Assembly (NCBI GenBank): GCA_044440125.1
Contig: JBITAJ010000003.1
Location: 64,001-128,000 of the forward strand
Direction: 5' to 3'
Length of the DNA: 64,000 bases
Source: Sedimentisphaeraceae bacterium JB056
GTDB taxonomy: Bacteria > Planctomycetota > Phycisphaerae > Sedimentisphaerales > Sedimentisphaeraceae
Below are positions 31,301 to 60,684 of this stretch, in pieces. The position numbers were made by a program, and so were the translations under genes. The notes below the pieces were generated by a model, which was given only the letters and a program-made list of their open reading frames with translations, was not told the DNA's origin and ran no database searches. How positions within the stretch are numbered: the first letter of the stretch is position 1; the number at the start of each line of letters is the position of its first letter.

Positions 31301-33298
31301 AAAATATCTCAAATTCTGCCAGCTATATCCTGTACCAATATACAAAGGCTGAGTATCTGTAGTGCCTGTCTGAGCATTTTCCAATATACCATGACAACGA
31401 TAATCGACATACAATTTCCATGTACCTGCCCCATCTGATGTAACAGCAACCTGATGCCAGTAACCATCATTTATTCTTCTGCTGCTTGTTATGACACCAC
31501 TTGAGATACTGAAACTCAGCAAACCTGTAGAATCATCCCAGTAAAGCTCATAACCGCCTGAACTGGGAAAACATTTCGATAAAATAAAATTCTTCACACT
31601 TGAGTCAGAACTGGCCCCGTCAACTCTGAGGAAAAACTCAATTGTTTTAGCCCCTGAAAACGCAGTAACAGGACTATGCGGCAGAGATATATAATCATCA
31701 GTACTGCCAAATTCTACGGCAGCCCTGCCATCAATCCACGAAAAGACATCTTCTGTATATTTAATACCATCATCAGGATTATTAAATGTACCAAAATCAT
31801 CAGAATTTGAAGGAGAATTATATTCTCTTACAACATCGCCGTCTCCAGGGACATAGTCATCATCTCCTGCTTCAAATCTGTAATACGCTAACAAACTGTC
31901 ATCACTGTCAATAGGCTGAAAATTTTCAGGAGTAAGAACTGAATCATAAACCCTTATATCATCAAGTACCCCATAGAAAGATCTCTGATACTGCCATCCA
32001 AAACCAGTACCAATAGCAACATATCCTGAAGATACATAACCGGTGCTGCCGCTGCAAGAACCTTCAAGAACATAATCTACGTACAGTTTATAGTTCCCCG
32101 AGTTATCAGATGTAACTGCAACATGATGCCACATATCATCATCCACTACAGTACTGCCGCTAATAACATTGCCTCCAATATTAAGAACTACTCCTCTCGT
32201 ACTTTCATCCCAGCAGATTGAATAACCGTTGCTTGTTGTATAATCTTTGCAGATCATATAATTTGCAGTAGAAGAGTCGGCGCTTGCACCATCTACTTTC
32301 ATGAAAAACTCTATGGTCTTGGTACAACCAAAGTTCCATATTGCAGAGTTTGCAACCTGTATTTCATCATTACCGGAACTAAATTCCATTGACAAAGAAG
32401 AAAAATCTTTAGCTGTATAAGTAGTATAAGCTGGCCCACCAGCAGTACTTGTAGTAACAGTACCATCATAACTGCCTGATATATTATCAATATGATCACT
32501 TGTAGTCGGAGCCAATCCGGTAGATCCACTGCCGTCTGAGCCTTTCTCGAAATTATAGCAAGCAACAGGCAAAACAGGTAAAGACTGAAAACTGCCACTA
32601 CTCAATACCGTATCTGATATTTTAATATCATCAACAGAACCGTTCAATCCGCGAGCCTCCATCCATCCATAACCACTGCCAATCGTTACATATCCGCTTG
32701 AGACATACCCCGTACTGCCGCTGCCTGAAACATCAAGATTATGATCAACATATAGATTATAAGAACCTTGATTATCCGACGTAACAGCAATATGATGCCA
32801 TGCACCGTCCAAAAACCCAATATCACTGCTGCCTGAAAGTGTGAGACTACCTATAGTAAAATTAACACTGTCATCAGATTCATCCCAATAACAGATATAG
32901 CCATTATTAACCGTATAATCTTTTGCAAAAATTATCTGCAAATCTGAAGGATCAAGCGTCTTACCATCAATTCTTACATACATTTCAATAGTTTTAGCAC
33001 TTCCAAAATTCCATACAGCATTATTAGCTATATAAAGACTCTCATCTTGAGGACCAAACTGCATGGAAAGAGAAGAACCGGAATTTGCATGGGCTGTAAT
33101 ATATTTTGGACCTACAGAAGTAGCAAGACCTACGGAAGCATCATTGCTTCCAACCGTATCATCTACTGTATGATTTAACCCGACAACATACGCACCGCCA
33201 CTACCATTAGAACCTTCTTCAAAATTATAGACAGCAACAGTAGAGCTCCAAACAACAGAACATAAAACAAACATAAAGAAAATGTAGACAGACTTCAT
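28364..33298 (-). CDS. Secreted modular enzyme: three LamG domains, GH42-like (clan GH-A) domain and a C-terminal LamG
   Basis: ATG 33298 with AGGAGG RBS; four WH(H/Q)(I/V)A / G.(I/V/L)D LamG units; SPHW, LNEP, YDW..F, NSENH and VAVLYS motifs. Confidence 0.8.
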   Translation of the reverse strand: MKSVYIFFMFVLCSVVWSSTVAVYNFEEGSNGSGGAYVVGLNHTVDDTVGSNDASVGLATSVGPKYITAHANSGSSLSMQFGPQDESLYIANNAVWNFGSAKTIEMYVRIDGKTLDPSDLQIIFAKDYTVNNGYICYWDESDDSVNFTIGSLTLSGSSDIGFLDGAWHHIAVTSDNQGSYNLYVDHNLDVSGSGSTGYVSSGYVTIGSGYGWMEARGLNGSVDDIKISDTVLSSGSFQSLPVLPVACYNFEKGSDGSGSTGLAPTTSDHIDNISGSYDGTVTTSTAGGPAYTTYTAKDFSSLSMEFSSGNDEIQVANSAIWNFGCTKTIEFFMKVDGASADSSTANYMICKDYTTSNGYSICWDESTRGVVLNIGGNVISGSTVVDDDMWHHVAVTSDNSGNYKLYVDYVLEGSCSGSTGYVSSGYVAIGTGFGWQYQRSFYGVLDDIRVYDSVLTPENFQPIDSDDSLLAYYRFEAGDDDYVPGDGDVVREYNSPSNSDDFGTFNNPDDGIKYTEDVFSWIDGRAAVEFGSTDDYISLPHSPVTAFSGAKTIEFFLRVDGASSDSSVKNFILSKCFPSSGGYELYWDDSTGLLSFSISSGVITSSRRINDGYWHQVAVTSDGAGTWKLYVDYRCHGILENAQTGTTDTQPLYIGTGYSWQNLRYFIGAIDELRISRSVLDVEDFAGIPTGYAALVDDYETLKSLANQLEASDELDVYAVMRIALIDKFLDYYIDDLVDQVSDLPTYAYSDLGDLIDEETARLQGIIADTYSTVDSPRRVVSQMPEPVGTYLQQQVEWTDGSKETRPVFLYGFCAEQQNFRADAEFIGSDLGCNYLQLFTGPKYVMPQESLWDAADPSQSSLDSGIMWHYRSAVSDANDYGIVTDMNISPHWIQDWFITNNPSYYADLGGFMKYTLNQADVKEIIGWTSRLMIEDLSTVDGLWSCCVLNEPCYFNWNADLDTSDLWVDYLQDFYNNSLSAANSNWNKSYSTWSSITKYLYPPSTPFASYPELYDWMKFNDNRISDWAVWLQTYIKAANSSLYTHIKQNERFYSQFNVMQGSDIDLLSRVTDLPGTDVALAPWDTSSSESVQRHGACGTLSLSLQKNLSQKAVINSENHVIYDNNTDSVDSGQVRSALWLQALSGMDATAAWIWGRDRGNMSSDLLGLWMNRPGATEEYARTGMDLMRLMPQIVEFREKDAKVAVLYSRTSALRYPDYSDYVLDTFQAMNQTGIQTVACTEQMVADNELLTKIPDLSVIILPGCVYLPDEVYSQIVSLSSSYDIKIIGVGSNIASKEEYCFDRSNPFSTVSSNYQSFSYFTFSGLWSSLSNTLCDLNIAPDITLTDTSGAPLSGLFYKSVEVDSIWYLTAVNMSTSSCTFKAKDVALRNWMMNDELNLVPDSSSYTMTLAPLEVGYYRLSASTPDVENYYNFEEGTDTLGSAGTAISTSGWIEDLVGSLDGTVTLASGKPEYITGLDSYTLAMKFGNANNAITFANSASFQWAESEDKTIEFFIRRDGDGPDQSSTEFVMSKGYTSSGGWQVTFDRSAGTLKFNIQGQIAESTTDFTDQQWHHVAIRHSADSGTYELFVDYAEEDELTGFTSGSSSMPDFLVGRGYGWQNLRVFNGAIDNIRISGQALGTTEFLD

Positions 33299-33359
33299 CT
33301 GTGCCTCCTGAAAAAAAATTAGAAAGTTAGAAAACAACCAAGCTTATTTTGAAATGGAC

Positions 33360-33397
33360 AAAAAAATATCGACAGCTTTTTTACAAGCTGCCGATAT
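33360..33397 (-). terminator. Intra-operon terminator-like hairpin after the PEP-CTERM gene
   Basis: Minus strand ATATCGGCAGCTT-GTAAAA-AAGCTGTCGATAT followed by a T run. Confidence 0.7.
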
Positions 33398-33403
33398 GAT
33401 ATT

Positions 33404-34195
33404 TTATTTTTTGCGTCTGCGAATCAGAATCCCACCCAAACCAAACAATGCTATTGTTGCAGGCTCAGGAATAAACTCATTAGTAGAAAGAACACTATCA
33501 GTTATACGGAATTCATCAATGGCTCCGCTAAAGACTCGCTGATCCTGCCAGCCGTAACCTTTTCCGACAGAGAATGCCGCACTTGTAACCGAACCGCTGC
33601 CGAAACCGTCAAGCGATCCTGCAAGTTCATAATCTACATAAAGATCATAATGAGCCGAATCAGCCGCATGAGTTACCGCAACATGATGCCACAGAGAGTC
33701 AGTGAATACCGAAGAACTTTCTATAGTTTCACCTTGTATTTGAAACCTTATGCTCCCCGCACTTCTGTTAAAAGTCATTTGCCATCCACCTGATGATGTA
33801 TAACCTTTACTCATTATAAACTCGGTAGTGCTTCCGTCGGGGCCGTTGCCGTCTCTGCGGACAAAGAATTCCACTGTTTTTGAGGCATTCTCCGACCACT
33901 GAAAATCAGCATCATTTCCGAAATCAACAGAATTCTGCTTCTGCCCGAATTCAAGAGCAAGATTTCCTGATGCCAGAGGTGAGACACTGTCTCCATATCT
34001 GGGATACCCGTTTACACTTGTTACAGTGCCGTTGCTCGAACCATAGCTATCTGTTACCCAACCCGAAGTTGTAGGAGCAGAACCAATGGCCCCATTGCCA
34101 TCGGAGCCTTCTTCGAAAGTATAGTAAGCGGCACCATTAACCAGGCTTACTGCTGCCAACAACAATACACAATTTCTATAAATAACATTCTTCAT
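33404..34195 (-). CDS. LamG-domain PEP-CTERM protein
   Basis: ATG 34195 with AAGGAGG RBS; one LamG; C-terminus IPEPATIALFGLGGILIRRRKK. Confidence 0.9.
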   Translation of the reverse strand: MKNVIYRNCVLLLAAVSLVNGAAYYTFEEGSDGNGAIGSAPTTSGWVTDSYGSSNGTVTSVNGYPRYGDSVSPLASGNLALEFGQKQNSVDFGNDADFQWSENASKTVEFFVRRDGNGPDGSTTEFIMSKGYTSSGGWQMTFNRSAGSIRFQIQGETIESSSVFTDSLWHHVAVTHAADSAHYDLYVDYELAGSLDGFGSGSVTSAAFSVGKGYGWQDQRVFSGAIDEFRITDSVLSTNEFIPEPATIALFGLGGILIRRRKK

Positions 34196-34206
34196 AATTG
34201 CCTCCT

Positions 34207-35838
34207 TTATGGCCAAATATTATCCTGATTCCATTGAGATGCCATCAAAGCAAAGTCATCCAATGTAACCATATAGTCTCCTGTAAGATCACCTTCCTGC
34301 TCACCCATTGGGCGACGAACATAAACTCTGATATCATCAATATAAATTGTGCCTGTTCCAGCATTACCTGTTGCTATTAAAGAAATATTCTGAATATTGG
34401 TAAGATCAACACCATTATAAAGACTTAGATCAATATTCATTTCATTCCACAAACCATCAGTAATATCGGCAAAACCAGAGTAGGTTACTGCTGAAGAATT
34501 AGTTCCATCTGATAACTCTACTTCAACATCTACAGAATCATTACTTACAGGTGCAAGTACATATATTGACATAGACTTTATGCCGTTATCCTGCCAGTTA
34601 GTATAGGAAGGAACAAAAGAAGCAATAGATGTGTCAGATGCTGAAGCTAAATCATAGACCATCTTAAGCCCTCTTTCACCATCATTATAGACATCTTCAT
34701 CTATGGACGCCAAATCTGATGACTGAAGATTATTAGGATCATCCTGTGATATAGTCCAACTTGTTTCGAGAGCAGCTTCATCAGCATAAGATTCAAAATC
34801 CTCAAGCACTACATAATCAGATGTTGTAAAACTCCATACATCGCCTGTCCATGGGCTGTCTTGAGACGAAGAGTTTACAGCATCAATTCTCCAGTAATAT
34901 GTAGTGGCAGGTTTGAGTACTGGTGTAGTCCAGGACAATGAACTTGTCTCTGTCTGGTAAGCAAGTGAGTCAGCAGAAGTTCCAAAATATACAGAATGTG
35001 TAACCGCAGAACTACCCGCTATCCACTCAAGAGTAGGAGTAAGCCCTGAAACAACAGTCGTATTACCCGGCTTAGGGAAACTTGCTGTTTCGATCTCTAC
35101 CTTAAGGAATTCAAAAGTAGACAATGCTGTATCAGAAAATCTCACCTCATCAATATAACCATTGAATGAACGCAATGACTGCCATCCGTATCCACTACCG
35201 ATATATAGAGGACCTTCGCTTACCGAACCAGAGCCATATCCGCTCAGTTCAGCCTCTTTTCTATAGTCAACAAACAGCTCATATGTAGCAGAATTAGCAG
35301 CATGAGTAACAGCTACATGATGCCAGCCGCCATCAGTAAAATCAGTAACACTGCTGATTATATGATTTCTTATACGGAAATTCAGCAAACCTGTATTACG
35401 GTTAAAATACATATCCCAGCCATTTGTAGTCCCATAGTCCTTAGACATCACAAACTCTGTTGAACTTGGATCAAATCCATTACCAGATCTACAAACAAAG
35501 AATTCAACAGTCCTGGAAGTATTCTCAGAAAATTGGTAAATACTTGAGTTACCTACTAATACATAACCACCTTCAGTACTGAACCGCAACGATGTGCTTC
35601 CCGGAGCAGAGACAGAAGATTCCGTAGAATACTCGGGAGAGGATAAGCTCAAAACAACAGTCCCATTATTATCCGAGTTGATAGAATCCAAAACCCAATC
35701 ATCAGTTTCCGGTACCGTGCCAACAGCACCATTTCCATCAACGCCCTCTTCAAACATGTAATACGACAGCGTAGTTGCCGCAACAGGCATGCTTATTGAT
35801 ACCATAATAATACTTATTACTAATAGAAATCTATACAT
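34207..35838 (-). CDS. Secreted LamG + FN3-like + CBM11-like protein with half-dockerin tail
   Basis: ATG 35838 with GGAG RBS; LamG; TYYWRID..VWSFT; EDFESY..IYIDDI; GDLTGDYMVTLDDF..W. Confidence 0.75.
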   Translation of the reverse strand: MYRFLLVISIIMVSISMPVAATTLSYYMFEEGVDGNGAVGTVPETDDWVLDSINSDNNGTVVLSLSSPEYSTESSVSAPGSTSLRFSTEGGYVLVGNSSIYQFSENTSRTVEFFVCRSGNGFDPSSTEFVMSKDYGTTNGWDMYFNRNTGLLNFRIRNHIISSVTDFTDGGWHHVAVTHAANSATYELFVDYRKEAELSGYGSGSVSEGPLYIGSGYGWQSLRSFNGYIDEVRFSDTALSTFEFLKVEIETASFPKPGNTTVVSGLTPTLEWIAGSSAVTHSVYFGTSADSLAYQTETSSLSWTTPVLKPATTYYWRIDAVNSSSQDSPWTGDVWSFTTSDYVVLEDFESYADEAALETSWTISQDDPNNLQSSDLASIDEDVYNDGERGLKMVYDLASASDTSIASFVPSYTNWQDNGIKSMSIYVLAPVSNDSVDVEVELSDGTNSSAVTYSGFADITDGLWNEMNIDLSLYNGVDLTNIQNISLIATGNAGTGTIYIDDIRVYVRRPMGEQEGDLTGDYMVTLDDFALMASQWNQDNIWP

Positions 35839-35900
35839 TTTTATCTCCATATTGTTTAGCTTAATTTTAGTTAAATTAAATAACAGTCAAACGTATACTC

Positions 35901-37541
35901 TTACGGCCACAATGTTGTATCAGCCCAATTGTCCACTATCACACTAAGATCAAGTATATCAACACGGCAGTCACCATTCATGTCAGCACTAAGAGCTTCT
36001 GTACAAATGCCCTGCAGTATATTAACATAATCAACATAGAGATACCCAGTACCGGTTGCATTAGTCAGAGAAATTGTAAGACCCTGTACATCTGTAAGAT
36101 CTAAGCCAACAAAATCATCAAGACTGACATATACAGCATGCCACTGGCCATCATTCAGAGAAGAAGAGTCTTCATATAAAACATCCACTGTCTGAGCAGA
36201 ATCGCTTATTGAAACGATAATATCAGCATCAACACTGCCAGCTTCGAACATAGCATAAAAGCTTAAAGCTCTTACATCGTCAACGGTCCAATCTGTAACA
36301 GCAGGAGAAAAAGAAGTAGATGAAACATCGCTTGTATCAGCAAGATCATAAGCTATCTGCATACCTTTATCGCCTGAATACAAGGTAGTAGCTCCAACAG
36401 CAGAATCAGATGACTGAAGATTGTTAGGATCAGCATCGCTGAAAGTCCAGGCAGCATCTATAGCACTCTCATCAGCATAAGACTCAAAATCATCAATAAC
36501 TATTAAACTTTGAACTGTAAAACTCCAAACCTCACTTGTCCATGGGCTTTCTGGATACGAATCGTTTATTTCGTCAACTCTCCAGTAGTAAGTTTGTCCA
36601 AGCTCAAGAGCAGGAGAATATTCATTTACAGAAACCTCTCCCATATATTCGTCTGAAACCTCTGTAGCATTCAATACCGCTTCATAATCAGTCCCAAGAT
36701 ATACCTTGTGAGTCAATGCAAAATCACCGGATGTCCAGCTCAATGTAACATTGTTAGCAATATTCTGTGAACCATCAGCCGGCTGTGGAGTATAAGCTGC
36801 AGTTACATTTCTGTAAACAAAATCGGCAGGAATCAATACTTCATCTGATATTCTGATATCATCCATAGCACCATTGAATACACGTTGATCCATCCAACCA
36901 TACCCTTTACCAACCAAGAGTGTTGGAGTTGTAACGGAACCGCTTGAAAAACCGGTTATTTCTGCTTCTTTCTCGTAATCAACGTATAATTCATATATTC
37001 CAGAGTTAGCCTCATGTGTAATGGCAACATGATGCCATACCATATCTTCAAATGAAGTAGTACTTTCCATTACAGCACTTTGAACCTGAAATCTTATGGT
37101 CTTAGCTGTGCGGTAGAAATATATTTGCCAACCGCCTGAAGAAGTATACCCCTTACTCATAATAAACTCAGTTGTACTTCCATCAGGGCCATTGCCATCG
37201 CGACGGATATAGAACTCAAGAGTTTTTGAGGCATTTTCCGACCATTGAACGGCTGCTGAATTAGGTATAGTAATACCGTTGTATTTAGCAGCAAACCTCA
37301 TACCCAAACTTCCCATAGAACGAAATGCAACAGTATCAATATAGGCAGGGTAACCACCACTTACTGCCGCTGTAGCATTATTACTGCCTGCAGAATCAAG
37401 GACCCAGCCAGATGTTGTCGGAGCTGTTCCAGTTGCACCAAGACCATTAAAACCTTCTTCAAAATCATAATATGCAACCGTCCCGGCAAAAAGCATAGTG
37501 CTTAGAACAGAAGATAACAAAATTGCTAACTTAAATTTCAT
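35901..37541 (-). CDS. Secreted LamG + FN3-like + CBM11-like protein with half-dockerin tail (tandem paralog of 34207-35838)
   Basis: ATG 37541 with GGAG RBS; same architecture; shared DPNNLQSSD and FESYADE; ADMNGDCRVDILDL..W. Confidence 0.75.
   Translation of the reverse strand: MKFKLAILLSSVLSTMLFAGTVAYYDFEEGFNGLGATGTAPTTSGWVLDSAGSNNATAAVSGGYPAYIDTVAFRSMGSLGMRFAAKYNGITIPNSAAVQWSENASKTLEFYIRRDGNGPDGSTTEFIMSKGYTSSGGWQIYFYRTAKTIRFQVQSAVMESTTSFEDMVWHHVAITHEANSGIYELYVDYEKEAEITGFSSGSVTTPTLLVGKGYGWMDQRVFNGAMDDIRISDEVLIPADFVYRNVTAAYTPQPADGSQNIANNVTLSWTSGDFALTHKVYLGTDYEAVLNATEVSDEYMGEVSVNEYSPALELGQTYYWRVDEINDSYPESPWTSEVWSFTVQSLIVIDDFESYADESAIDAAWTFSDADPNNLQSSDSAVGATTLYSGDKGMQIAYDLADTSDVSSTSFSPAVTDWTVDDVRALSFYAMFEAGSVDADIIVSISDSAQTVDVLYEDSSSLNDGQWHAVYVSLDDFVGLDLTDVQGLTISLTNATGTGYLYVDYVNILQGICTEALSADMNGDCRVDILDLSVIVDNWADTTLWP
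36952..37144 (-). repeat. 193-bp inverted repeat, copy 1 (within a LamG coding region)
   Basis: Reverse complement matches 39049-39241 with 9 mismatches (manual alignment). Confidence 0.9.
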
Positions 37542-37591
37542 ACTTGTCTCCATTAAAAAAATAACATTAAAAAGGCGCAAACTGCCTACCA

Positions 37592-38329
37592 CTATTGTCT
37601 ATCTTTTACATTTGACAAAAATCTGTCAAGACTGTAACCCACGACCGCCGGATCAACTTCAACTCCTTTAGATACAGAGCAATCAGAGAACGCAACATTC
37701 AAATCACCATTCATGGCATTATCACTATTTTCATTTGCTCCAGCGGCAACACTGGCAAAATGATTCCAATAGAAATTCATACCAGCTGTGTAGCCTTTTT
37801 CGTCAGAAATCAATGGCTTTGATGCATCAGAGAGCCTCAATGCTCGTTTCATAGGAGTTCTCGTTCCGTTATAGCAAGCAAGGAAATTATAGCCGATGCC
37901 TCTGCCCTGCCATCCCACTTTCTCTGGGGACCAGTCAGCTTTATTTTCTGCATCAAATTGCCTGTGCTTATCAAGCGGACAATAAAAAACAGTAGGATCC
38001 GACACATAACCTGGATATAACAAACTTAAATACAAATTAGGCCTGCAGAAGAAGCCTCCGAATTCACCCCAGTTCTCAGATGAAGATGTGCCTGTCCACC
38101 AATCTTTACCATCGGTCCTTCCAGTATAAATAAATTTACCATCGTAGTCTGCCGCGTATACAGCATTACCTAAAACAGATTGCCTTACATTATTGGCACA
38201 GATATTCAGCTTTGCAGATCGCCTGGCTTTTCTTAACGACGGCATCAGAACCGACATAAGCAAGGCAATTATCGATATGACCACAAGTAACTCAATTAGA
38301 GTAAAAGCTTTACGCCATTGTCTTTGCAT
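37592..38329 (-). CDS. Prepilin-type N-methylation protein (DUF1559-like) with variant H-X9-DG motif
   Basis: AFTLIELLVVISIIALLMSVLMPSL, C..NVRQ, FYCP; NH..LNVAFSDCSV; AAGGAG RBS. Confidence 0.85.
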   Translation of the reverse strand: MQRQWRKAFTLIELLVVISIIALLMSVLMPSLRKARRSAKLNICANNVRQSVLGNAVYAADYDGKFIYTGRTDGKDWWTGTSSSENWGEFGGFFCRPNLYLSLLYPGYVSDPTVFYCPLDKHRQFDAENKADWSPEKVGWQGRGIGYNFLACYNGTRTPMKRALRLSDASKPLISDEKGYTAGMNFYWNHFASVAAGANENSDNAMNGDLNVAFSDCSVSKGVEVDPAVVGYSLDRFLSNVKDRQ

Positions 38330-38375
38330 GACATAGTCTCCTTTGTCTATAGATTAATTCCAAAACGATAAATAG

Positions 38376-38404
38376 AGTGTAATAAATAAAAGACATATTG
38401 TCAA
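38376..38404 (-). promoter_or_regulatory. Promoter of the prepilin/LamG operon
   Basis: TTGACA-N17-TACACT. Confidence 0.6.
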
Positions 38405-38588
38405 CTTAAAAATACAACTTATCACCAAAAAAAGATATGATATTTGGGGACATCCTAAATGTTTTAAGAACAAATTAACCACATAAACGTATAAAAAACA
38501 AGGTTTTAACTTTAACAAATCTTATTAAAAACTATTTTTCTTAAATCTGACAAAAATAGACAAAGCAAAGATATCTTGTATTTTTTTG

Positions 38589-38617
38589 TTTACAAGTGAT
38601 AAAGAACATGATATCAT
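38589..38617 (+). promoter_or_regulatory. Promoter of the 38661 gene
   Basis: TTTACA-N17-TATCAT with extended TG; starts with the same TTTACAAGT as the 27047 promoter. Confidence 0.6.
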
Positions 38618-38660
38618 CACATCTCAGATGTAATCACTTTTATTATTTAATGAGGTAAAA

Positions 38661-41600
38661 ATGAAGTTCTTCGGATGGCTTGTATTATTTCTCTTGTCCG
38701 TACATTCTGTTATTTTCGGCAACACGATAGCTTTCTACGACTTCGAAGAAGGCTCAGACGGCACTGGAGGCACGGGGACTGCACCGGCACAGACAGGATG
38801 GGTATCAGATTCAGCAGGAGACAATCATGGAACACCTTATATATATGGAGACAAACCATACTATATTAAAAGCCAGGAATCAAATTTAGCTCTTAGTTTT
38901 GGAGTTGCCAAAAACGCAATCCAATTCAACAACTCAAGCGTATTCCAATGGCCGGAAAACTCATCTCGAACTATTGAATTCTTTATCCGCCGTGATGGCA
39001 ATGGTTCTGACGGCAGCACGACGGAATTCATTATGAGCAAGGGATATGCTTCTTCAGGCGGTTGGCAAATATATTTTTACCGTACAGCTAAGACCATAAG
39101 ATTTCAGGCTCAAAGTGCTGTAATGGAAAGTACTACTTCATTTGAAGATACGGTATGGCATCATGTTGCAATTACACATGAGGCTAACTCTGAAACATAT
39201 GAATTATATGTTGATTACGAAAAAGAAGCAGAAATAACCGGATACAGCTCAGGCTCAGTTACAAGCGCCGCTTTTTTTGTTGGCAGAGGCTACGGATGGC
39301 AGGAACTCAGGGTATTCAACGGAGCAATAGACAATATCAGGATATCTGATCAAAACTTATCGCCAGAGCAATTCCAACAATTGAACACTGACCTTCTCCT
39401 ATCTTTCGAAGAAGGTACTGACGGCTCAGGTACACAAGGCCAAGCCCCTTCTGACGCAGGCTGGATTGTAAGCACATATAACCCTGCAATAGCCTCAGCA
39501 ACTGCCTCTCCTGGTGGAGAAGGACCTATTTACAGCCATTACAATGAAACCCAATTATGCATGGAATTCACCGGCAACACCGCTGATTACATAACAATAC
39601 CCGACTCTGATATAATAGATATTTCAGAAGAGGAAAACATCACTATTGAACTATACTTCAAAGTTCTGAACGAAAATTTTGTCTCAAGTCCTCTAAATTG
39701 GCTAATGTGCAAAGGCTTCACTGACAGTTCAAGTAATGGCTGGGGAATATACTGGAACGAATCTGATGACAAGATCACATTCAATATCTCAGGACAATCC
39801 GTCACTTCTCAAACAACAATAAATGATGGATACTGGTATCACTTTGCTATTACGCATGAGGCTTCAACCGGAATTTACAACCTTTATATAGACCATCAAT
39901 TTCAGGGCAGAATAGAATCCAGTTATTCGGGAAGCCTTAATTCCGAAGACCTGATAATAGGCCGCGGATGGGACTGGCAGTACAATAGAGACTTCATAGG
40001 CAGTATAGATGAATTCAAGATCAGCAGCGAAGTATATAACGAGCAGCAATTCATGCCGTTGCCTGTAAAACAAATAGATCTTACGACACGAGTCAGTAAT
40101 CTCAACAAACTGGCAGAAAAACTCGAAACTGCGGGACAGCTTGACTACTACGGAAATATGAGAAACAAGCTTGTTCAAAAATTCTTGCCTTATATTGAGA
40201 CTCTTAACCAAGACGGAAATACTGAACTGGCCGACTATGCCGAGGCGGATATCGAAAGAATAACAACGGAAGAAACAAGCCGACTCGGTGCTATACTAAA
40301 TGGAGAGCTGCCCCAGACTTATACTCCCAGAAGAGTTGCAGACCAAATGCCTGTTCATACTAATGGGCATCTCCAACAGCAAGTTCAATGGCCTGATAAT
40401 ACGACAGAAACAAGACCCGTATTCCTATACGGCTTCTGCGCTGAGCAACAAAACTTCCGTCCGGATGCCGAATTCATCGGCAACGACCTCGGCTGTAATT
40501 ATCTTCAGGTATTTACCGGACCAAGGTATGTCATGCCGGACGAATCAATGTGGGATACAGACAATCCATCACAAAGCACACTGGATGCCGGAGTTATTGG
40601 AAGCTACCAAAGCGCAATAGCAGATGCCTACAACAACGGTATAATAACTGACCTCAACATCTCGCCTCACTGGATACAAAATTGGTTCATAGACAATCAC
40701 CCAGAATACTACGCTGATCTCGGTGGATTTATGAAATACACGCTGAATCAAGCCGAAGTAAAAGAAATAATCGGCTGGTCAAGCAGGCTGCTCATCGAGG
40801 AGTTAAGTACCCAAACAGGTTTGTGGTCGTGCTGCATAATGAACGAACCATGTTATTTCCGATGGACAGACGACCCGGACACTTCAAGTTTATGGACAAA
40901 TTATCTACAGAACTTCTACAGTAATAATATCGCCACTGCAAACTCAAACTGGGGCAAATCGTATTCATCATGGACAAATATAACCCAATACCTTTATCCC
41001 CCGTCAACACCATATCCGGCATACCCGGAGCTATACGACTGGATGAAATTTAACGATACGCGAATAAGAGACTGGGCATTGTGGCTGCAGACTTACGTCA
41101 AAGCGGCAAACAGTTCACTTTATACTCACATAAAACAGAATAACAGGTTTTATACACAATTCAACGTTATGCAGGGCAGCGACATTGATCTTCTAAGCAA
41201 ATGTACAGATTTACCCGGCACAGACGTAGGACTTTACTCATGGAACCCGTCATCACCTTCAAATACTGAGCTTTACGGCGTATCATCAACGCTGCCAATG
41301 ACAACGCAGAGAACCGTAACGGGACGACCGATAATCAATTCAGAAAACCATATACTCAGAGACAACAACTCTGAACCAATAGAACAAGGCCATGTAAGGG
41401 CCAGTATGTGGCTTCAGGCACTATCAGGCATGGACGCTATGAGTGCATGGATTTGGGGATATGACCCTACAGATGAATTATCAACAGGACTCTGGAAAAA
41501 TCGTCCCGGGGCAACCGAAGAACTGGCACGAACAGGTATGGACCTAATGAGACTGATGCCGCAGATTGTCGAATTCAGAGAAAAGCCTGCAGAGGTTGCT

Positions 41601-42413
41601 TTGCTCTATTCAAAAACCTCTGCATTACGCAGTCCATCTTACGAGACTGCCATATCGAATACTTTTGACGTTTTGAAAGAAATGGGCTTGCAAACGGCAG
41701 TAATAACGGAACAAACCATCACCGAAGGCAGTGTGCTTTCAACAGTTCCATCAATAAAGGCTATAATATTGCCAGGTTGCGATTATCTTCCCGATAACGT
41801 ACACGACATAGCCGTAAGTCTTGCCCAGGCTAACAGTATAAGCCTGCTGGGAATCGGAAGTGATATCGCAAAATACAACGAATACTGCTTTTTACGATCA
41901 GAAATATTCCCATCAACGGATTATAACCAAATAACCGATAGCACGCTGAACTCGCTTCAGACATCACTGCCTCAACACTTGGAAAGCCTGGATATCTCAA
42001 CTGATATTACTCCGGAAACTATCAATGGGACAAGATCTTTCGGCTTATACTACAATACAGCAAAGATAGACGGCAAAGATTACATAACCGCTGTAAATAC
42101 GACTCCAAGCACAAAAGAGATTATCTGGAAAGATGCTGACGGTAATCCAGTGGCAATCATTGATGCGATCAATCTGGTTCCAGAGACGACATCTGCGATA
42201 AATGAATACGAGCCGCTTGAAGTTATTTACGGACAGATGGTAAAAGCCGGAGACTCCAACGGAGACACATTCGTTGACATGCAGGATTTTGCAATTATTG
42301 CTAAGAACTGGCACGCTGACGGTAAAAACTGGCAAACAGGTGACTACAGCGGTGACGGATATGTTGATTCAGAAGATTTAATATTGTTCGCAGCTAACTG
42401 GTACAGTGAATAA
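38661..42413 (+). CDS. Secreted modular enzyme: two LamG domains, GH42-like domain and dockerin-like tail
   Basis: GAGG RBS; signal peptide; MNEP and NSENH; catalytic part closely resembles the 28364 protein; GDSNGDTFVD..GDYSGDGYVD..NW. Confidence 0.8.
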   Translation: MKFFGWLVLFLLSVHSVIFGNTIAFYDFEEGSDGTGGTGTAPAQTGWVSDSAGDNHGTPYIYGDKPYYIKSQESNLALSFGVAKNAIQFNNSSVFQWPENSSRTIEFFIRRDGNGSDGSTTEFIMSKGYASSGGWQIYFYRTAKTIRFQAQSAVMESTTSFEDTVWHHVAITHEANSETYELYVDYEKEAEITGYSSGSVTSAAFFVGRGYGWQELRVFNGAIDNIRISDQNLSPEQFQQLNTDLLLSFEEGTDGSGTQGQAPSDAGWIVSTYNPAIASATASPGGEGPIYSHYNETQLCMEFTGNTADYITIPDSDIIDISEEENITIELYFKVLNENFVSSPLNWLMCKGFTDSSSNGWGIYWNESDDKITFNISGQSVTSQTTINDGYWYHFAITHEASTGIYNLYIDHQFQGRIESSYSGSLNSEDLIIGRGWDWQYNRDFIGSIDEFKISSEVYNEQQFMPLPVKQIDLTTRVSNLNKLAEKLETAGQLDYYGNMRNKLVQKFLPYIETLNQDGNTELADYAEADIERITTEETSRLGAILNGELPQTYTPRRVADQMPVHTNGHLQQQVQWPDNTTETRPVFLYGFCAEQQNFRPDAEFIGNDLGCNYLQVFTGPRYVMPDESMWDTDNPSQSTLDAGVIGSYQSAIADAYNNGIITDLNISPHWIQNWFIDNHPEYYADLGGFMKYTLNQAEVKEIIGWSSRLLIEELSTQTGLWSCCIMNEPCYFRWTDDPDTSSLWTNYLQNFYSNNIATANSNWGKSYSSWTNITQYLYPPSTPYPAYPELYDWMKFNDTRIRDWALWLQTYVKAANSSLYTHIKQNNRFYTQFNVMQGSDIDLLSKCTDLPGTDVGLYSWNPSSPSNTELYGVSSTLPMTTQRTVTGRPIINSENHILRDNNSEPIEQGHVRASMWLQALSGMDAMSAWIWGYDPTDELSTGLWKNRPGATEELARTGMDLMRLMPQIVEFREKPAEVALLYSKTSALRSPSYETAISNTFDVLKEMGLQTAVITEQTITEGSVLSTVPSIKAIILPGCDYLPDNVHDIAVSLAQANSISLLGIGSDIAKYNEYCFLRSEIFPSTDYNQITDSTLNSLQTSLPQHLESLDISTDITPETINGTRSFGLYYNTAKIDGKDYITAVNTTPSTKEIIWKDADGNPVAIIDAINLVPETTSAINEYEPLEVIYGQMVKAGDSNGDTFVDMQDFAIIAKNWHADGKNWQTGDYSGDGYVDSEDLILFAANWYSE
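39049..39241 (+). repeat. 193-bp inverted repeat, copy 2
   Basis: 184 of 193 positions identical to the reverse complement of 36952-37144. Confidence 0.9.
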
Positions 42414-42538
42414 CTGAAACCACATTTCCCGATAAAACAGAAAGAAATAAGGCAAGGATGCAACCTGGCATTGCAGTAGCAGTGCTGACTCTTGCTATGT
42501 CAAAATATATGGAGAGTCGATATTTCAAAACAGATAAA

Positions 42539-42566
42539 TTGATCACTATGATCAGAATGTTATAAT
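42539..42566 (+). promoter_or_regulatory. Promoter of the 42600 gene
   Basis: TTGATC-N16-TATAAT with extended TG; TGATCA-CTA-TGATCA overlaps the -35 and spacer. Confidence 0.55.
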
Positions 42567-42599
42567 TTAATTTACATTAAAGTTGTTAAGAGGTTAGAA

Positions 42600-45500
42600 A
42601 TGAAATTAATGTTGAAATTGTTATTGGTAACAATATGTTGTATTACTTTTGCGGATGCTCAGCAATATCCCAAGCCAGAGCAGCTCAAAAAAGAATACGA
42701 ATCACTTGCAGAACTCTCTGATCGCGCGGCATCACAAGGCAAACTCGATCAATACGGAGTGATGCGAAAGATGCTTCTGGAAAGATTTATTGAGTATCTT
42801 CCAAATGACATAGAACAATACCCTGAATTATCAAGTTATGCAGCAAGGGATATACAAAAAATAATAGAAGATGAGAATCAGAGACTAAGAGACATCCTGC
42901 TGGATAAATACGAACCAGTCAAAACAGTCAAAAGAATACCAACAGAAAAGCCTGAAATATCAGACGGTCATTTTGAACAGACTGTAGAGTGGAGTGATGG
43001 AACTATAGAAAAAGACCGCCCTGTTTACATGTTCGGATTCGGTCATTTCCATAACATGAGAAACGATATTGAATGGCTCGGCAAACTTGGAATCAACTAC
43101 TGCGAAACAGAAATTGGACCAAGAGAGTCGCTAAAAAGCGAAACTGAAGTAAACGAAGATATGATAAAATACTACAGAAGTTTTGTTAATAAAGCATACG
43201 ACTCCGGCGTATTGGTCGACCTGCTTCTTTCCCCACACTACACACCAGGATGGGCCAAAGAAAAATATCCTGAGCTTTACCCGCACCTCGGAGGATTCCT
43301 CAGAATAAACATGTACAACCCGATCGTCAACAAAATAGTTGATAGACATATAGACAAGACACTGGGCATAATAGGCAAAGAGCCGGGTCTATGGACTATA
43401 TGTGCTTCAAATGAGCCTGTCGCGTTCCTATGGAGTAACGTCCCTGAAATGAAAGGTATGTGGCTAAGATACCTGAAAGACCAATACGGCAGTCTTGATA
43501 ATATCAACAAAAAATGGCAGACAGAATACAAAACATGGCAAGAAATACCGGCATATCTCACTCCTCCTTCTCGACCGTTTCCAGAAGAACCTGCCCTGTT
43601 TGATTGGATGAGATTCAATGATTCCAGCTTCGCCGCATGGCACGGATCGCTCGAGGAAGAGATAGACAGCGTATTAGATAAAAACAACTATGAAAAACGT
43701 CCTGTTCAAATTAAAATGATAGAACGTTCTTTCAGACAATACGATCTCATGCAAGGCGGAGATCCATACGAATTCGGAAAGTACTTCGACCTCAACGGCA
43801 TGGATGGCGGCAGTTATCCTTTTAAGGTTGATTCAGATGAAAAGATGGCATTAGGTATCCGTGGTGCAACTCTCAAAAACATTCTCCTTAGAAGTATAAA
43901 CAAACTGCCTGTCGTTAATACAGAAAATCACCTGCTTCGTGACAGATACACCAATGACATTCTTCCCGGTCATATAAGGGCAAGTATGTGGCTCCAGCTT
44001 CTTACTGGGCAGCACGGTTCAGTTGCATGGGCATGGGAACGAAGAGACAAAGAGAAAAGCAATATATTTAAGGGACTCTTTCAATACAGACCTCTTCAGA
44101 CAGAAGAATATATGCGAACAGGATTTGATGCAATGCGTCTGATGCCTTACATAACGGCAATTGCAGACTCTGAGCCTCAAATAGGTATACTCTACTCAAG
44201 AGCTTCATTACTTCGAAATGTAGAGGCTAAAGACGAATTGATGAACTGTATAGACGCAGTATATGAACTTGGTATTCCATTCGCATTGATACCGGAACAG
44301 ATGTTCGAAAATAACGAAATAGAAGCAAAACTTCCTGAAGTTAAAACAGTAATACTCGCAGGAGCAACTCACATAACCGATAAAGCAATGACCGGACTTG
44401 ACTATTACCTTAAAATGGGATTCCATGCTAATGAAGCATCTGCAATTGTCATAGGTGATAATATTGCTAAATACAATGAATACTGTCAACAGCGAAGAAA
44501 TGACATATTCAATGACACTGCTGTAATATCTATGTTCATAGATGAAAAAGAAGCTCATGAGCTCAAAAACGACCTGCGTAAAACTCTAAGTTCGATCGAT
44601 ATCTACCCTGAATACCAACTGGTATATGCAGACACACAGGAACCTGTAGAAGGCATGTTCTGGAGAACAGCAAAACTCGACGGCAAGCTCGCTGCATCAG
44701 TTGTAAATGCTACAAGGGAAACAGTAAAATGTATGTGGATAGATGCTGAAGGAAATAAAATGAGCTTCAAAGACGAAAGCTCTCTATCCGGCGTCAAAAC
44801 TTCTACTGTCATTACAATTGAACCGCTTGGAATAAACTGCGGCACTATTTCTGAAGCAAAAGATACTAAAATTAATGCAAAGATAAATCAAGAACCAACG
44901 TTCATGAACAATGAATACCTTGATGCCATACCCGGCAAATACAACCCAGAACTCCATCTTGTAGGCCTCGAATGGCATGGCCCCGGCTACCACTCAATGG
45001 TTCCAAACGGAACATGGGTTCACCGAGCTATCACATCACTAAACTATGCTCTATACCTTTACAAGACAGATATACCTGGAAACATAGAAGAGGCAAATAA
45101 AATAGTAGCCAAAGTAATATCCCTTCAGGACACAGACCCTATGAACAAAACGTTCGGCATATGGTCATGGCTTTACGAAGAGCCTCTAAGTGAAATGAAC
45201 CCACCAGACTGGAACCTCGCTGACTTCTGCGGAAAATGTCTCTGTGAAATATATATTCTTCACAATGAATATCTCCCAGACGAACTTTCAAAAGAAATAA
45301 AGACATCTATCTATAATGCGGCAATGTCTATATTCCGTAGAAATGTCGGACCTGAGTATACCAACATAGCGATTCAGGGTTCAGGAGTTTGTATCTGCGC
45401 AAGCGAGATTCTCGGAAACGAGTTTTTCTACGATTACGGTTTAGAAAAGCTTACAGCAGTTTTCGAGCGAGCAAAAGGACTTGGCGCTTACGATGAATAT

Positions 45501-46580
45501 AACAGTCCTAATTACACCGCATTTGTCCTGACTCTGTGCGAAGATTATAAAAAATTATTCACCACCCCTGAGGCACTTGACGTACTTGAAAACCTGAGAG
45601 TTTTTACATGGCATGATATCGCAAGTCATTATCATCCAGGAACAAATCAATGGGCAGGTCCATTCGCAAGAACATATTCAGACCGAATGAATCCTTCAAA
45701 TGCAGCCTGGATTTCTAAGGTAACCGGATTAGATATTAGACCGCACTATTCATTTACACACACTAAAGTAGCTAAAGATGCAAAATCCAACCTGAAATGT
45801 CCGGAAGAACATAAATCACTTTTCAAAGAGCTCCCATCAGACGAAGTTCTTATAAAGGGACAAAGCAGACGTGCAAGAATTGATGGAATACCTGTATCAC
45901 TTACAACATGGATGGTTGAGGATCTTTGTTTCGGTACTTGTGAGCGTGATAATATGTGGACTCAGAGAAGACCATTCCTTGCATACTGGAAAAGCGATAT
46001 TGAGCCTGCAGTATATCTTAAGGCAAGATTCATGAAGAATGATTATGATTTTGCGTCAATGATTATACACAACGCTCAGGATAGAAATAAGGCATTGACT
46101 TGCTTCTCACCTGTAACAGACAGATCGGATAAGCACGACACTCTTTACAGACCAGAAGACGGCGTATTCAAAACCACAGATATGAGAGCAAGATTTGAGA
46201 TCAACGGCAGAGGCGTAAAAGCTGAGAAAATCAATAACTCTACCTTCCGTCTTTATGACGATGCTTATCAGGCTGTATTCCATGTCAGTGATTCTTATTT
46301 TGCTGGCAAGAAAGTAAAATGGGAAGTCGGCCACGATGAAAACAACACAGCATACCTTGATGCAGTTTGCTATGAAGGCAAAGAAACTGGATTTGATTTC
46401 GACAATCTCAAAGACACATACTTAGTATGTTCTGTTGAAATAATCAAGTCTGACGACAAGCCGGAAATTAAGAGCGGCCCTGTTGTTGAAAATAACAATG
46501 GAGAAATAACCGCTGAATGGCAGACAAAAGACCAGAATCTTAAAATCGAATTCCCAGGATACTGCGTAAAATATTATTGA
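42600..46580 (+). CDS. Secreted bimodular protein: GH42-like domain plus uncharacterised helical lyase-like module
   Basis: Signal peptide; SPHY, SNEP, NTENH and IGILYS; second half has DWNLADF, YTNIA, EYNSPNY and AGPFARTY. Confidence 0.65.
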   Translation: MKLMLKLLLVTICCITFADAQQYPKPEQLKKEYESLAELSDRAASQGKLDQYGVMRKMLLERFIEYLPNDIEQYPELSSYAARDIQKIIEDENQRLRDILLDKYEPVKTVKRIPTEKPEISDGHFEQTVEWSDGTIEKDRPVYMFGFGHFHNMRNDIEWLGKLGINYCETEIGPRESLKSETEVNEDMIKYYRSFVNKAYDSGVLVDLLLSPHYTPGWAKEKYPELYPHLGGFLRINMYNPIVNKIVDRHIDKTLGIIGKEPGLWTICASNEPVAFLWSNVPEMKGMWLRYLKDQYGSLDNINKKWQTEYKTWQEIPAYLTPPSRPFPEEPALFDWMRFNDSSFAAWHGSLEEEIDSVLDKNNYEKRPVQIKMIERSFRQYDLMQGGDPYEFGKYFDLNGMDGGSYPFKVDSDEKMALGIRGATLKNILLRSINKLPVVNTENHLLRDRYTNDILPGHIRASMWLQLLTGQHGSVAWAWERRDKEKSNIFKGLFQYRPLQTEEYMRTGFDAMRLMPYITAIADSEPQIGILYSRASLLRNVEAKDELMNCIDAVYELGIPFALIPEQMFENNEIEAKLPEVKTVILAGATHITDKAMTGLDYYLKMGFHANEASAIVIGDNIAKYNEYCQQRRNDIFNDTAVISMFIDEKEAHELKNDLRKTLSSIDIYPEYQLVYADTQEPVEGMFWRTAKLDGKLAASVVNATRETVKCMWIDAEGNKMSFKDESSLSGVKTSTVITIEPLGINCGTISEAKDTKINAKINQEPTFMNNEYLDAIPGKYNPELHLVGLEWHGPGYHSMVPNGTWVHRAITSLNYALYLYKTDIPGNIEEANKIVAKVISLQDTDPMNKTFGIWSWLYEEPLSEMNPPDWNLADFCGKCLCEIYILHNEYLPDELSKEIKTSIYNAAMSIFRRNVGPEYTNIAIQGSGVCICASEILGNEFFYDYGLEKLTAVFERAKGLGAYDEYNSPNYTAFVLTLCEDYKKLFTTPEALDVLENLRVFTWHDIASHYHPGTNQWAGPFARTYSDRMNPSNAAWISKVTGLDIRPHYSFTHTKVAKDAKSNLKCPEEHKSLFKELPSDEVLIKGQSRRARIDGIPVSLTTWMVEDLCFGTCERDNMWTQRRPFLAYWKSDIEPAVYLKARFMKNDYDFASMIIHNAQDRNKALTCFSPVTDRSDKHDTLYRPEDGVFKTTDMRARFEINGRGVKAEKINNSTFRLYDDAYQAVFHVSDSYFAGKKVKWEVGHDENNTAYLDAVCYEGKETGFDFDNLKDTYLVCSVEIIKSDDKPEIKSGPVVENNNGEITAEWQTKDQNLKIEFPGYCVKYY

Positions 46581-58265: not shown

Positions 58266-58300
58266 CAGTATTTCTCCGAATAAAATTTTATTTTGAATAA

Positions 58301-59068
58301 TCAACGAATAGACGGTTTGATTTCAGTTATAGAACCACCGGAAAGAAAATCTTCGACCAAAAAGTCGTATTCGGCAAATTCTAAATGTCCATCAGCGCAG
58401 AGATAATGACTGCCGCCCCGATGCCTGTCGCTATAATAATATTTTCCCGGCACGGTTGATAGACCACCCCATGCATATATATAGGGAACATCCCATCTGT
58501 TTTCGCCAAGAATTGCAGAAGTCGAAGCATTCTTGATCATTGAAGATCTTCTCGGCTTCCACCAGTTGCCTTGATAACTGCTGTCATACCTATAACCGGC
58601 ACTACGCCAATTCCAGCCAAAAGCCAGAGATTTCACTCCATTTGTATCTTTAGCACTAAGAGAAGGACAGCTTAATATTTTGGGAGCCTCATAACCTCTC
58701 TCACTTGCCTGTTTGGCATCACCGGCAACAGATCGATCCAGATAATCTGCATATGATGAATCATAATCAAGATATGAAGCAATATCTACATACCAATACC
58801 CTTTATGAGGATATTTCCCTTCATAAGAACTGCCGCTGAATCGCCCTCCATCATACATAGGCAACCAGTCATCATTATCTATCCCAAATTGGGCACAAGC
58901 CATTCCGATAGAACGGGAATTAGAACCGCACAACGTCTTCTTAGCCTGATCTCTGGCTACAGATAATGCCGGCATCATAATCGACATCAGTATTGCGATT
59001 ATAGAGATAACCACCAGGAGCTCTATCAAAGTAAAGGCGTTTCTTTTTTTGTTACTTTTCAAATCCAT
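58301..59068 (-). CDS. Prepilin-type N-methylation / H-X9-DG protein (DUF1559-like)
   Basis: AFTLIELLVVISIIAILMSIMMPAL, CGSN, CPS and HRGGSHYLCADG. Confidence 0.9.
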   Translation of the reverse strand: MDLKSNKKRNAFTLIELLVVISIIAILMSIMMPALSVARDQAKKTLCGSNSRSIGMACAQFGIDNDDWLPMYDGGRFSGSSYEGKYPHKGYWYVDIASYLDYDSSYADYLDRSVAGDAKQASERGYEAPKILSCPSLSAKDTNGVKSLAFGWNWRSAGYRYDSSYQGNWWKPRRSSMIKNASTSAILGENRWDVPYIYAWGGLSTVPGKYYYSDRHRGGSHYLCADGHLEFAEYDFLVEDFLSGGSITEIKPSIR

Positions 59069-59096
59069 TTTAATTTATCCTGATAAATCAATCGTA

Positions 59097-60623: not shown

Positions 60624-60684
60624 TTGCTTTCCTTCCAATACATAAAACCAATAATAAAAACAGTAAATTAATACAATTATCCGA

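Follow-up and report, generated by a model that had tools for sequence, protein, structure and literature searches.

How have two divergently transcribed genes, which are old and divergent paralogs, come to share a short patch of almost identical nucleotides in inverted orientation? The question is raised by a 64,000-nucleotide stretch of Sedimentisphaeraceae bacterium JB056 (GenBank assembly GCA_044440125.1, contig JBITAJ010000003.1, positions 64,001 to 128,000; hereafter the window, whose own numbering is used throughout), in which the minus-strand gene g35901 and the plus-strand gene g38661, both encoding secreted, sugar-binding LamG proteins with a signal peptide, are separated by a prepilin-type gene and an intergenic region (Table 1). 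A sequence-only reading of this DNA had proposed a recent gene-conversion tract, donated by g35901, that formed an inverted repeat of 193 bp at which a crossover might invert the intervening segment. We found that interparalog gene conversion has left this patch in the LamG domains of the divergent gene pair, and that the event was probably an ectopic conversion of about 195 bp from g35901 into its old divergent paralog g38661, without crossover.

A near-identical patch with sharp edges

The inverted repeat was reproduced exactly as first described, with 184 of 193 bases identical between positions 36952-37144 on the minus strand and 39049-39241 on the plus strand. At 89% identity (263/296) the repeat extends to 296 nt, with arms at 36952-37247 and 38946-39241 and 1698 nt between them, and the exact runs shared by the arms are 41, 28, 25, 22 and 20 bp long. 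Both edges of the tract are sharp: 9 of the 10 bases just below 36952 differ, and above 37148 there is a mismatch every few bases. Nucleotide identity between g35901 and g38661 is 94% in the tract, 61% upstream and 53% downstream of it.

The codon alignment of the two genes showed that 55 of the 65 tract codons are identical, five differ synonymously and five non-synonymously; the respective counts are 26, 35 and 47 in the upstream flank and 9, 19 and 17 in the downstream flank. Among degenerate codons that specify the same amino acid in both genes, 52 are identical and 5 synonymously different in the tract; elsewhere in the alignment these counts are 31 and 54 (Fisher p=2.7e-11). The Nei-Gojobori pS is 0.148 (dS about 0.16) in the tract and reaches 0.80 and 0.86 in the two saturated flanks. 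Synonymous identity is thus far from uniform along the domain. The peptide immediately upstream, RRDGNG(P/S)DGSTTEFIMSKG, is nearly the same in the two proteins and, as had been claimed, differs at most of its synonymous sites, with 12 of its 19 codons synonymously different, 6 identical and 1 non-synonymously different. We also devised our own GENECONV-like permutation test, based on 448 polymorphic sites in five paralogs and 10000 shuffles, in which the maximal segment score of the focal pair was 97 and the shuffle maximum 39, so that 0 of the 10000 shuffles reached the observed score; the remaining nine pairs of paralogs scored 14 or less. In the domain model, a predicted beta-sandwich with a mean pLDDT of 65.8 and a well-predicted core, the tract (model residues 110-174) corresponds to six consecutive core beta-strands and ends at the end of a strand, with pLDDT values of 79-92 in its blocks.

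Comparison with other LamG domains

Five paralogous LamG domains from the genome were compared in 10 pairs, namely those of g35901, g38661, g33404, g34207 and bigC; the last three belong to the same LamG subfamily, lie upstream of the focal genes and are all on the minus strand. The nine pairs other than the focal one are 49-67% identical in every region, compared with 94% for the tract, and therefore a single patch has been transferred and the family as a whole has not been homogenised. The suggestion that LamG domains are being homogenised by recombination consequently finds no support here, with the tract present in only 1 of the 10 pairs. A third copy of the tract was not found in the 4.54-Mb genome, in which the other matches are 66-71% identical.

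A further comparison was provided by L013, a metagenome contig of 2,368 bp that carries a prepilin gene followed by a gene for a protein 66% identical to g35901 (residues 1-522) and that is a syntenic g35901 ortholog from another species; the contig stops 27 bp before the prepilin gene on its upstream side. The flank trees unite g35901 with L013, at a support of 85% for protein and 46% for nucleotides, and the tract trees unite it with g38661, at 98% and 89%, respectively. The best 20-codon window of the focal pair reaches an identity of 0.98, and those of the other 14 pairs, including the pairs with L013, reach 0.73-0.85. The claim of a gene-conversion tract is accordingly borne out by the identity contrast, the synonymous sites, the permutation test and the trees.

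A patch of this kind could also result from selection at the nucleotide level, exerted on an embedded RNA or regulatory element, or from convergent codon choice, with no recombination involved. We found nothing in favour of this explanation, which appears extremely improbable: no Rfam match was obtained at E values up to 0.1 in positions 35500-42500, the tract is not predicted to fold unusually as RNA (z=-1.23), and the same stretch is 57-64% identical at the nucleotide level in the three other paralogs of the genome and 72-74% in L013.

Immediately beyond the 3' tract edge (39242-39300), g38661 reads GSVTSAAF, as does g33404 and not g35901, and the downstream flanks of g38661 and bigC share a nucleotide identity of 0.67, the highest of all flank values. 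These similarities hint that the native g38661 domain is, at least next to this edge, nearer to g33404 and bigC.

Independent assemblies and age of the event

Two sequencing runs were used to examine the locus independently of the deposited assembly: X1, the probable source run, of which an independent assembly was used, and X2, a run from another study that contains a relative about 4% divergent. (The run that best matches the genome is labelled an algae metagenome.) Two further runs, X3 and X4, contain small shares only, and the few short pieces obtained from X3 enter none of the conclusions; of the raw reads of X5, none aligned to the locus. The X1 assembly covers the locus in three pieces, 35000-37072, 37054-39139 and 39121-41000, each with 0 differences from the reference and a depth of 47-49; the breaks fall within the 41-bp exact core, and each half-arm is joined to its own unique flank. 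Some X1 joints that appeared to run between opposite strands or to go back on themselves were at first candidates for a rearrangement, and were rejected as secondary alignments of paralogous LamG domains on the same contig; the one examined has 81/101 identity with an exact block of 29 nt.

In X2, one contig (36834-37456; 26 differences in 623 nt) covers the whole minus arm in the reference orientation. This minus arm differs from the g35901 tract at 10 of 197 nt, and at three of these positions (37023, 37110 and 37116) it has the letter of the plus arm; the two reference arms and the X2 minus arm are about equidistant from one another, their pairwise differences over 197 nt numbering 9, 10 and 13. 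A second contig from X2 (38843-39095), which aligned over its full length of 253 nt with 9 differences, runs from the unique flank of g38661 for 47 nt into the tract. Judging from the divergence of the flanks, about one third of those 47 nt would be expected to differ in an unconverted copy.

An assembly chimera or a mixture of strains might be suspected in a metagenome-type assembly of 33 contigs, many of them ending in repeats, all the more as the probable source run yields contigs that end within the repeat itself. Such an artefact can be almost completely discounted, since the arms differ at nine sites, the half-arms are contiguous with their own flanks at equal depth, both genes remain in frame, and the related strain from another study has the complete minus arm as well as the plus-arm junction. 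The data thus establish a mosaic that is statistically significant, that gives rise to incongruent trees and that is present in an independent related strain.

Between the two arms, 9 of 193 bases (4.7%) are different, or 11 of 198 over 66 codons, with a dS of about 0.16. Because the plus-arm junction of X2 aligned closely, that junction predates the split of the two strains, and we infer that the event took place at or just before the divergence of strains that are now about 4% apart. The event is therefore young compared with the paralogs, yet not recent: the word "recent" in the sequence-only reading is justified in relation to the old paralogs, but the divergence of the arms equals that of the strains (26/623 and 10/197), and the junction is already found in the related strain.

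Direction of transfer

A metagenome scan kept 78 loci, among which L013 was the sole useful relative; another candidate, L079 (47%), was dropped for being not syntenic and without the inverted repeat. Amino acid identity between L013 and g35901 is 69, 74 and 63% in the upstream, tract and downstream regions, with no drop in the tract, and that between L013 and g38661 is 55, 73 and 63%, with a jump in the tract; similarly, dN between g38661 and L013 is 0.40 and 0.32 in the flanks versus 0.19 in the tract. When residues that g35901 has in common with L013, and that the three other paralogs lack, were taken as specific to the g35901 lineage, g38661 was found to carry five of the five such residues in the tract versus two of 13 in the flanks (p=0.0025).

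A second line of evidence came from strand-specific composition, for which we used the 32 window ORFs of at least 200 aa (6 plus, 26 minus). At third positions, T/(T+C) is 0.46-0.57 in all six plus genes and 0.63-0.81 in all 26 minus genes, and A/(A+G) is 0.68-0.80 in plus genes and 0.44-0.71 in minus genes. The g38661 tract has a T/(T+C) of 28/34 (0.82), a value at the top of the minus range and above all six plus genes, where the remainder of g38661 has 0.48 (p=8e-5); its T3/C3 is 0.45/0.10, and that of the flanks is 0.23-0.28/0.30-0.32. With a first training set, the codon log-likelihood ratios of the two tract copies were +3.3 and +0.4; a value of +3.3 was reached by 1.2% of 333 plus-gene windows and by none of the 224 windows taken from g38661; of the 1442 minus-gene windows, 16% have a lower score.

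Taken with the L013 phylogeny, the T-ending signal makes g35901 the likelier donor, as had been supposed, and the transfer probably ran from g35901 to g38661. The earlier argument from T-ending codons held for T/(T+C), which is minus-like, but not for the other indices, with A/(A+G) misfitting a minus-strand origin and whole-codon usage being only intermediate. Strand-specific codon bias can serve to probe both the identity of the donor copy and the past orientation of a segment, in the manner of an "orientation clock".

Several observations weigh against this interpretation. With a stricter training set, under which minus usage is expected to give a log-likelihood ratio of +7.2 (sd 3.7) and plus usage one of -7.2 (sd 3.75), the tract copies score an intermediate +1.7 and +0.5, and their A/(A+G), 0.86 in g38661 and 0.85 in g35901, is above the whole minus-gene range. 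The split that places L013 beside the converted pair in the tract trees reaches only 47% (nucleotide) and 54% (protein), and the L013 tract is also 68% identical to bigC. The related strain in X2 shows just 47 nt of the plus arm. An unconverted ortholog of g38661 was found neither in 40 relatives nor among 5.8 billion proteins: the best match outside the genome itself was 24-31% identical in the related genomes, and matches above 30% identity in the protein collection were all paralogs from the same genome. Finally, a flank identity of 53-61% leaves only short conserved blocks to serve as anchors for the start of recombination.

Mechanism of transfer

The patch is best explained by homologous recombination, or by templated repair, between the inverted paralogs without a crossover, in which six consecutive core LamG beta-strands would have been copied from g35901 into the divergently transcribed g38661. 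The process would have involved strand invasion of the RecA type, or else a switch of template, with short conserved blocks as anchors, and the 193-bp, 95% inverted repeat would be its by-product. A candidate anchor is the block of 29 nt encoding KGYTSSGGWQ, which overlaps the 5' edge of the tract and is exactly shared by g35901 (37126-37154) and bigC (28680-28708), within a stretch of 81/101 identity; g38661 differs from g35901 at two sites within it. This block may be a conserved block or a micro-conversion in its own right, and it is possible that it provided the homology. At the 3' edge of the tract, no obvious anchor was seen.

To place the focal pair in the context of the genome, we compared the genome with itself by megablast (identity of at least 85%, length of at least 100 bp, pairs within 20 kb). 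Among the 29 neighbouring pairs found, six are inverted, five of these being on a contig of 7.6 kb (C33), and the focal pair is the sole inverted neighbouring pair on a large contig. In ten direct pairs that were checked, cores of 138-956 bp are 84-95% identical and the 300-bp flanks 49-59% identical; such pairs are found at C18:85224-98166, C29:171151-174283, C10:3336-8971, C32:46313-48937, C21:305994-311079 and C27:144790-149526, among others. Patchy identity between neighbouring paralogs is therefore common in this genome, and the direct-repeat pairs may represent further conversion patches or shared modules. In addition, many contig ends are repeats 88-99% identical to other contig ends (C13/C14, C10/C2, C17/C8 and C18/C25, with 2.7 kb at 88.5% for the ends of C13 and C14), and the assembly is broken at diverged multi-copy elements.

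A continuing, bidirectional concerted evolution, in which the tract is the last core of a longer region that has undergone repeated conversion ever since the duplication and whose flanks have escaped and diverged and for which there is no single donor, would account for recombination despite a flank identity of about 55-60%, and would be in keeping with the at least 10 other neighbouring pairs that have conserved cores between diverged flanks. The per-codon scores of the tract, +0.043 and +0.001, also lie between the plus- and minus-gene ranges in both copies, although windows of 65 codons are noisy (sd about 4.5 units) and the intermediate values are within about 1.5-1.8 sd of minus usage. 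We consider this explanation rather unlikely, as both boundaries are sharp and without shoulders of intermediate divergence, the arms have drifted to 4.7% since the last event and retain no exact run longer than 41 bp, and all five residues of the tract that are specific to the g35901 lineage are present in g38661. A single conversion from g35901 remains the preferred reading.

Conversion between paralogs is well known, and the present case is an ordinary event at a new location. In Salmonella, the tuf genes (tufA and tufB) are also in inverted orientation. In the part of the published account that we draw on, these genes have 12 differences in 1185 nt and are converted about once per 10^5-10^6 generations, the conversion walking about 1000 nt, with shorter tracts in the presence of mismatch repair (PMC5485169). 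The present case resembles the tuf genes, as portrayed there, in the transfer between two chromosomal paralogs, which is probably non-reciprocal here too, the continuous blocks and the local homogenisation; unlike the tuf genes, which are near-identical over their full length and kept so by ongoing conversion (PMC5485169), it consists of an island of 195 bp that has decayed to 95%, in genes that are otherwise 53-61% identical. The general understanding of conversion is unchanged, and the locus would gain more weight only if inversion were shown. Its value lies in being a clean and bounded example of conversion between old paralogs in the little-studied Phycisphaerae, within a lineage-specific cluster of LamG and glycoside hydrolase-like genes; it shows that domain cores are exchangeable between the binding proteins and enzymes of a polysaccharide-utilisation locus, and that conversion patches create inverted repeats at which assemblies break.

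Orientation of the segment between the arms

The geometry of a hypothetical crossover had been described correctly: recombination in the 41-bp core would, by computation, invert 37149-39044, yield in-frame chimeras of 543 and 1253 aa, and bring the prepilin gene in front of the enzyme chimera. A functional invertible switch, in which cells retain the repeat in order to flip these 1.9 kb, so that a binding protein and an enzyme trade promoters, signal peptides and N-terminal half-domains and the prepilin gene is coupled anew, would fit a segment flanked by inverted repeats, the in-frame chimeras, and the fact that no other neighbouring inverted pair of 100 bp or more lies on a large contig of this genome. 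The middle piece of 2,086 bp is, moreover, a separate contig in X1, and X1 cannot confirm its orientation. The inversion idea is nevertheless without support, and a switch of this kind is highly unlikely. No tyrosine or serine recombinase was found among the 32 window ORFs or within about 77 kb; in the whole genome there are six tyrosine- and two serine-recombinase matches, those to PF00239 being on other contigs only and the nearest to PF00589 being a 75-aa fragment at C3:179747, about 77 kb off. The arms are just 95% identical with no more than 41 exact bases, and either chimera would join LamG halves that are about 55% identical.

Codon usage points the same way. The strand codon score inside versus outside the segment is -0.122 versus -0.127 for g38661 and +0.168 versus +0.133 for g35901, and it is +0.077 for the prepilin gene, where plus genes span -0.158 to -0.078 and minus genes +0.058 to +0.186; the inner parts of both genes thus match their present strand and the outer parts of the same genes. 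Over the length of the arm, L013 and g35901 are collinear, and the X2 contig that spans the minus arm does so in the reference orientation, so that composition, L013 and X2 all support the reference orientation of the middle piece. Together with the recombinase search and the properties of the arms, these data identify the present orientation as the one held over the long term.

The inverted repeat could occasionally mediate inversion. In a version that needs no recombinase, rare cells would flip the 1.9 kb by RecA-type recombination, exchanging the promoters, signal peptides and N-terminal LamG halves of the non-catalytic binding protein and the GH42-like enzyme and placing the prepilin gene ahead of the enzyme, while repeated two-way conversion would keep the patch alike and would be the reason for the intermediate codon signature. 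We regard this as a long shot; if true, it would amount to sap-like shuffling of promoters and domains in a polysaccharide-degrading planctomycete. In the sap (S-layer) locus of Campylobacter fetus, which is the nearest model for inversion here, RecA-dependent inversion moves a promoter between opposed paralogs with conserved 5' coding regions; the repeats are several hundred bases long and essentially identical, there are one promoter and several promoterless cassettes, and inversion is frequent. The present locus departs from sap in that both genes possess upstream regions of their own and the repeat is short, with an identity of 95%; its strand signature also speaks for an orientation that is stable. 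The locus also resembles invertons, both intragenic and partially intergenic, for which the portion of the report drawn on here describes flipping by site-specific invertases at short repeats and mentions a repeat of 11 positions (bioRxiv 10.1101/2023.03.11.532203). The resemblance lies in the inverted repeats within coding sequence and in the segment between them, which on inversion would recode proteins and move promoters. In contrast to invertons as presented in that portion, the repeat here is a homologous coding patch of 193 bp, no recombinase gene is near and no inversion was observed.

Genes of the locus and their surroundings

The features discussed are listed in Table 1.

Table 1. Positions of the converted patch, the genes that carry it and the paralogs used for comparison (window coordinates)
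Feature	Position	Strand	Description
g35901	35901-37592	-	Signal peptide, Laminin_G_3 domain, Ig-like and further beta domains, dockerin-like C-terminus
Prepilin-type gene	37592-38329	-	Protein of 245 aa with N-terminal methylation motif; directly upstream of g35901, same strand
Divergent intergenic region	38330-38660		331 bp, between the prepilin gene and g38661
g38661	38661-42413	+	1250 aa; signal peptide, two Laminin_G_3 domains, central region, dockerin
Tract arm, probable donor copy	36952-37148	-	Codons 149-213 of ORF 35901-37592
Tract arm, probable acceptor copy	39045-39241	+	Codons 129-193 of ORF 38661-42413
Longest exact stretch common to the arms	37043-37083		41 bp; partner 39110-39150
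Segment between the arms	37149-39044		1,896 bp; both N-terminal gene parts, prepilin gene, intergenic region
bigC	28367-29032	-	C-terminal LamG domain of ORF 28364-33337; unconverted comparator
g33404	33404-34216	-	LamG and PEP-CTERM paralog; unconverted comparator
g34207	34207-35850	-	Paralog with the architecture of g35901; unconverted comparator

The assignment to Laminin_G_3, a concanavalin A-like lectin/glucanase domain (PF13385; curated cut-off 27.6 bits), is based on scores of 66.8 bits for g35901 and 118.8 bits, over two stretches, for g38661. The true start of g35901 is likely the ATG at 37541 (MKFKL...), which has a GGAG ahead of it and for which the L013 ortholog has the same start region. 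The product of 37592-38329 is, by its motif, a prepilin-type N-terminal cleavage/methylation protein, matching PF07963 (N_methyl) at its N-terminus (residues 6-28) with 27.1 bits against a cut-off of 21.2, and the pairing of this gene with g35901 is conserved in L013. The intergenic region has one promoter-like site per strand, at 38589-38617 (plus) and 38404-38376 (minus), which are consensus matches only; in the promoter scan, the total for the region (26) was not above that of shuffled sequences (18.7, sd 5.6).

The ORF 28364-33337 (1657 aa, four LamG stretches) is a full-length paralog of g38661 with 49% identity, and the central region of g38661 is 34% identical to its GH42-like neighbour at 42600-46580. 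Secreted proteins built from LamG domains form a cluster that occupies 28.4-46.6 kb of the window, and this cluster of LamG and GH42-like genes (28364-46580) is restricted to the lineage. Elsewhere in the window there are genes for sulfatases, heparinase II/III-like lyases, a GH38 enzyme, a polysaccharide lyase, sugar symporters and regulators; the window is a polysaccharide-utilisation region in a genome of the Phycisphaerae (Planctomycetota). In keeping with this placement, a fragment of RpoB from the genome has 70% identity to that of a Sedimentisphaerales MAG, and most of the other matches listed come from Phycisphaerae or Planctomycetota.

A second module of similar composition was observed at 55998-60638, where a prepilin-type gene (58301-59068; N_methyl and DUF1559) lies between genes for two LamG proteins (59097-60638 and 55998-58304), the latter of which also carries BNR_4. 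Its presence suggests that pairs of prepilin-like and LamG genes recur.

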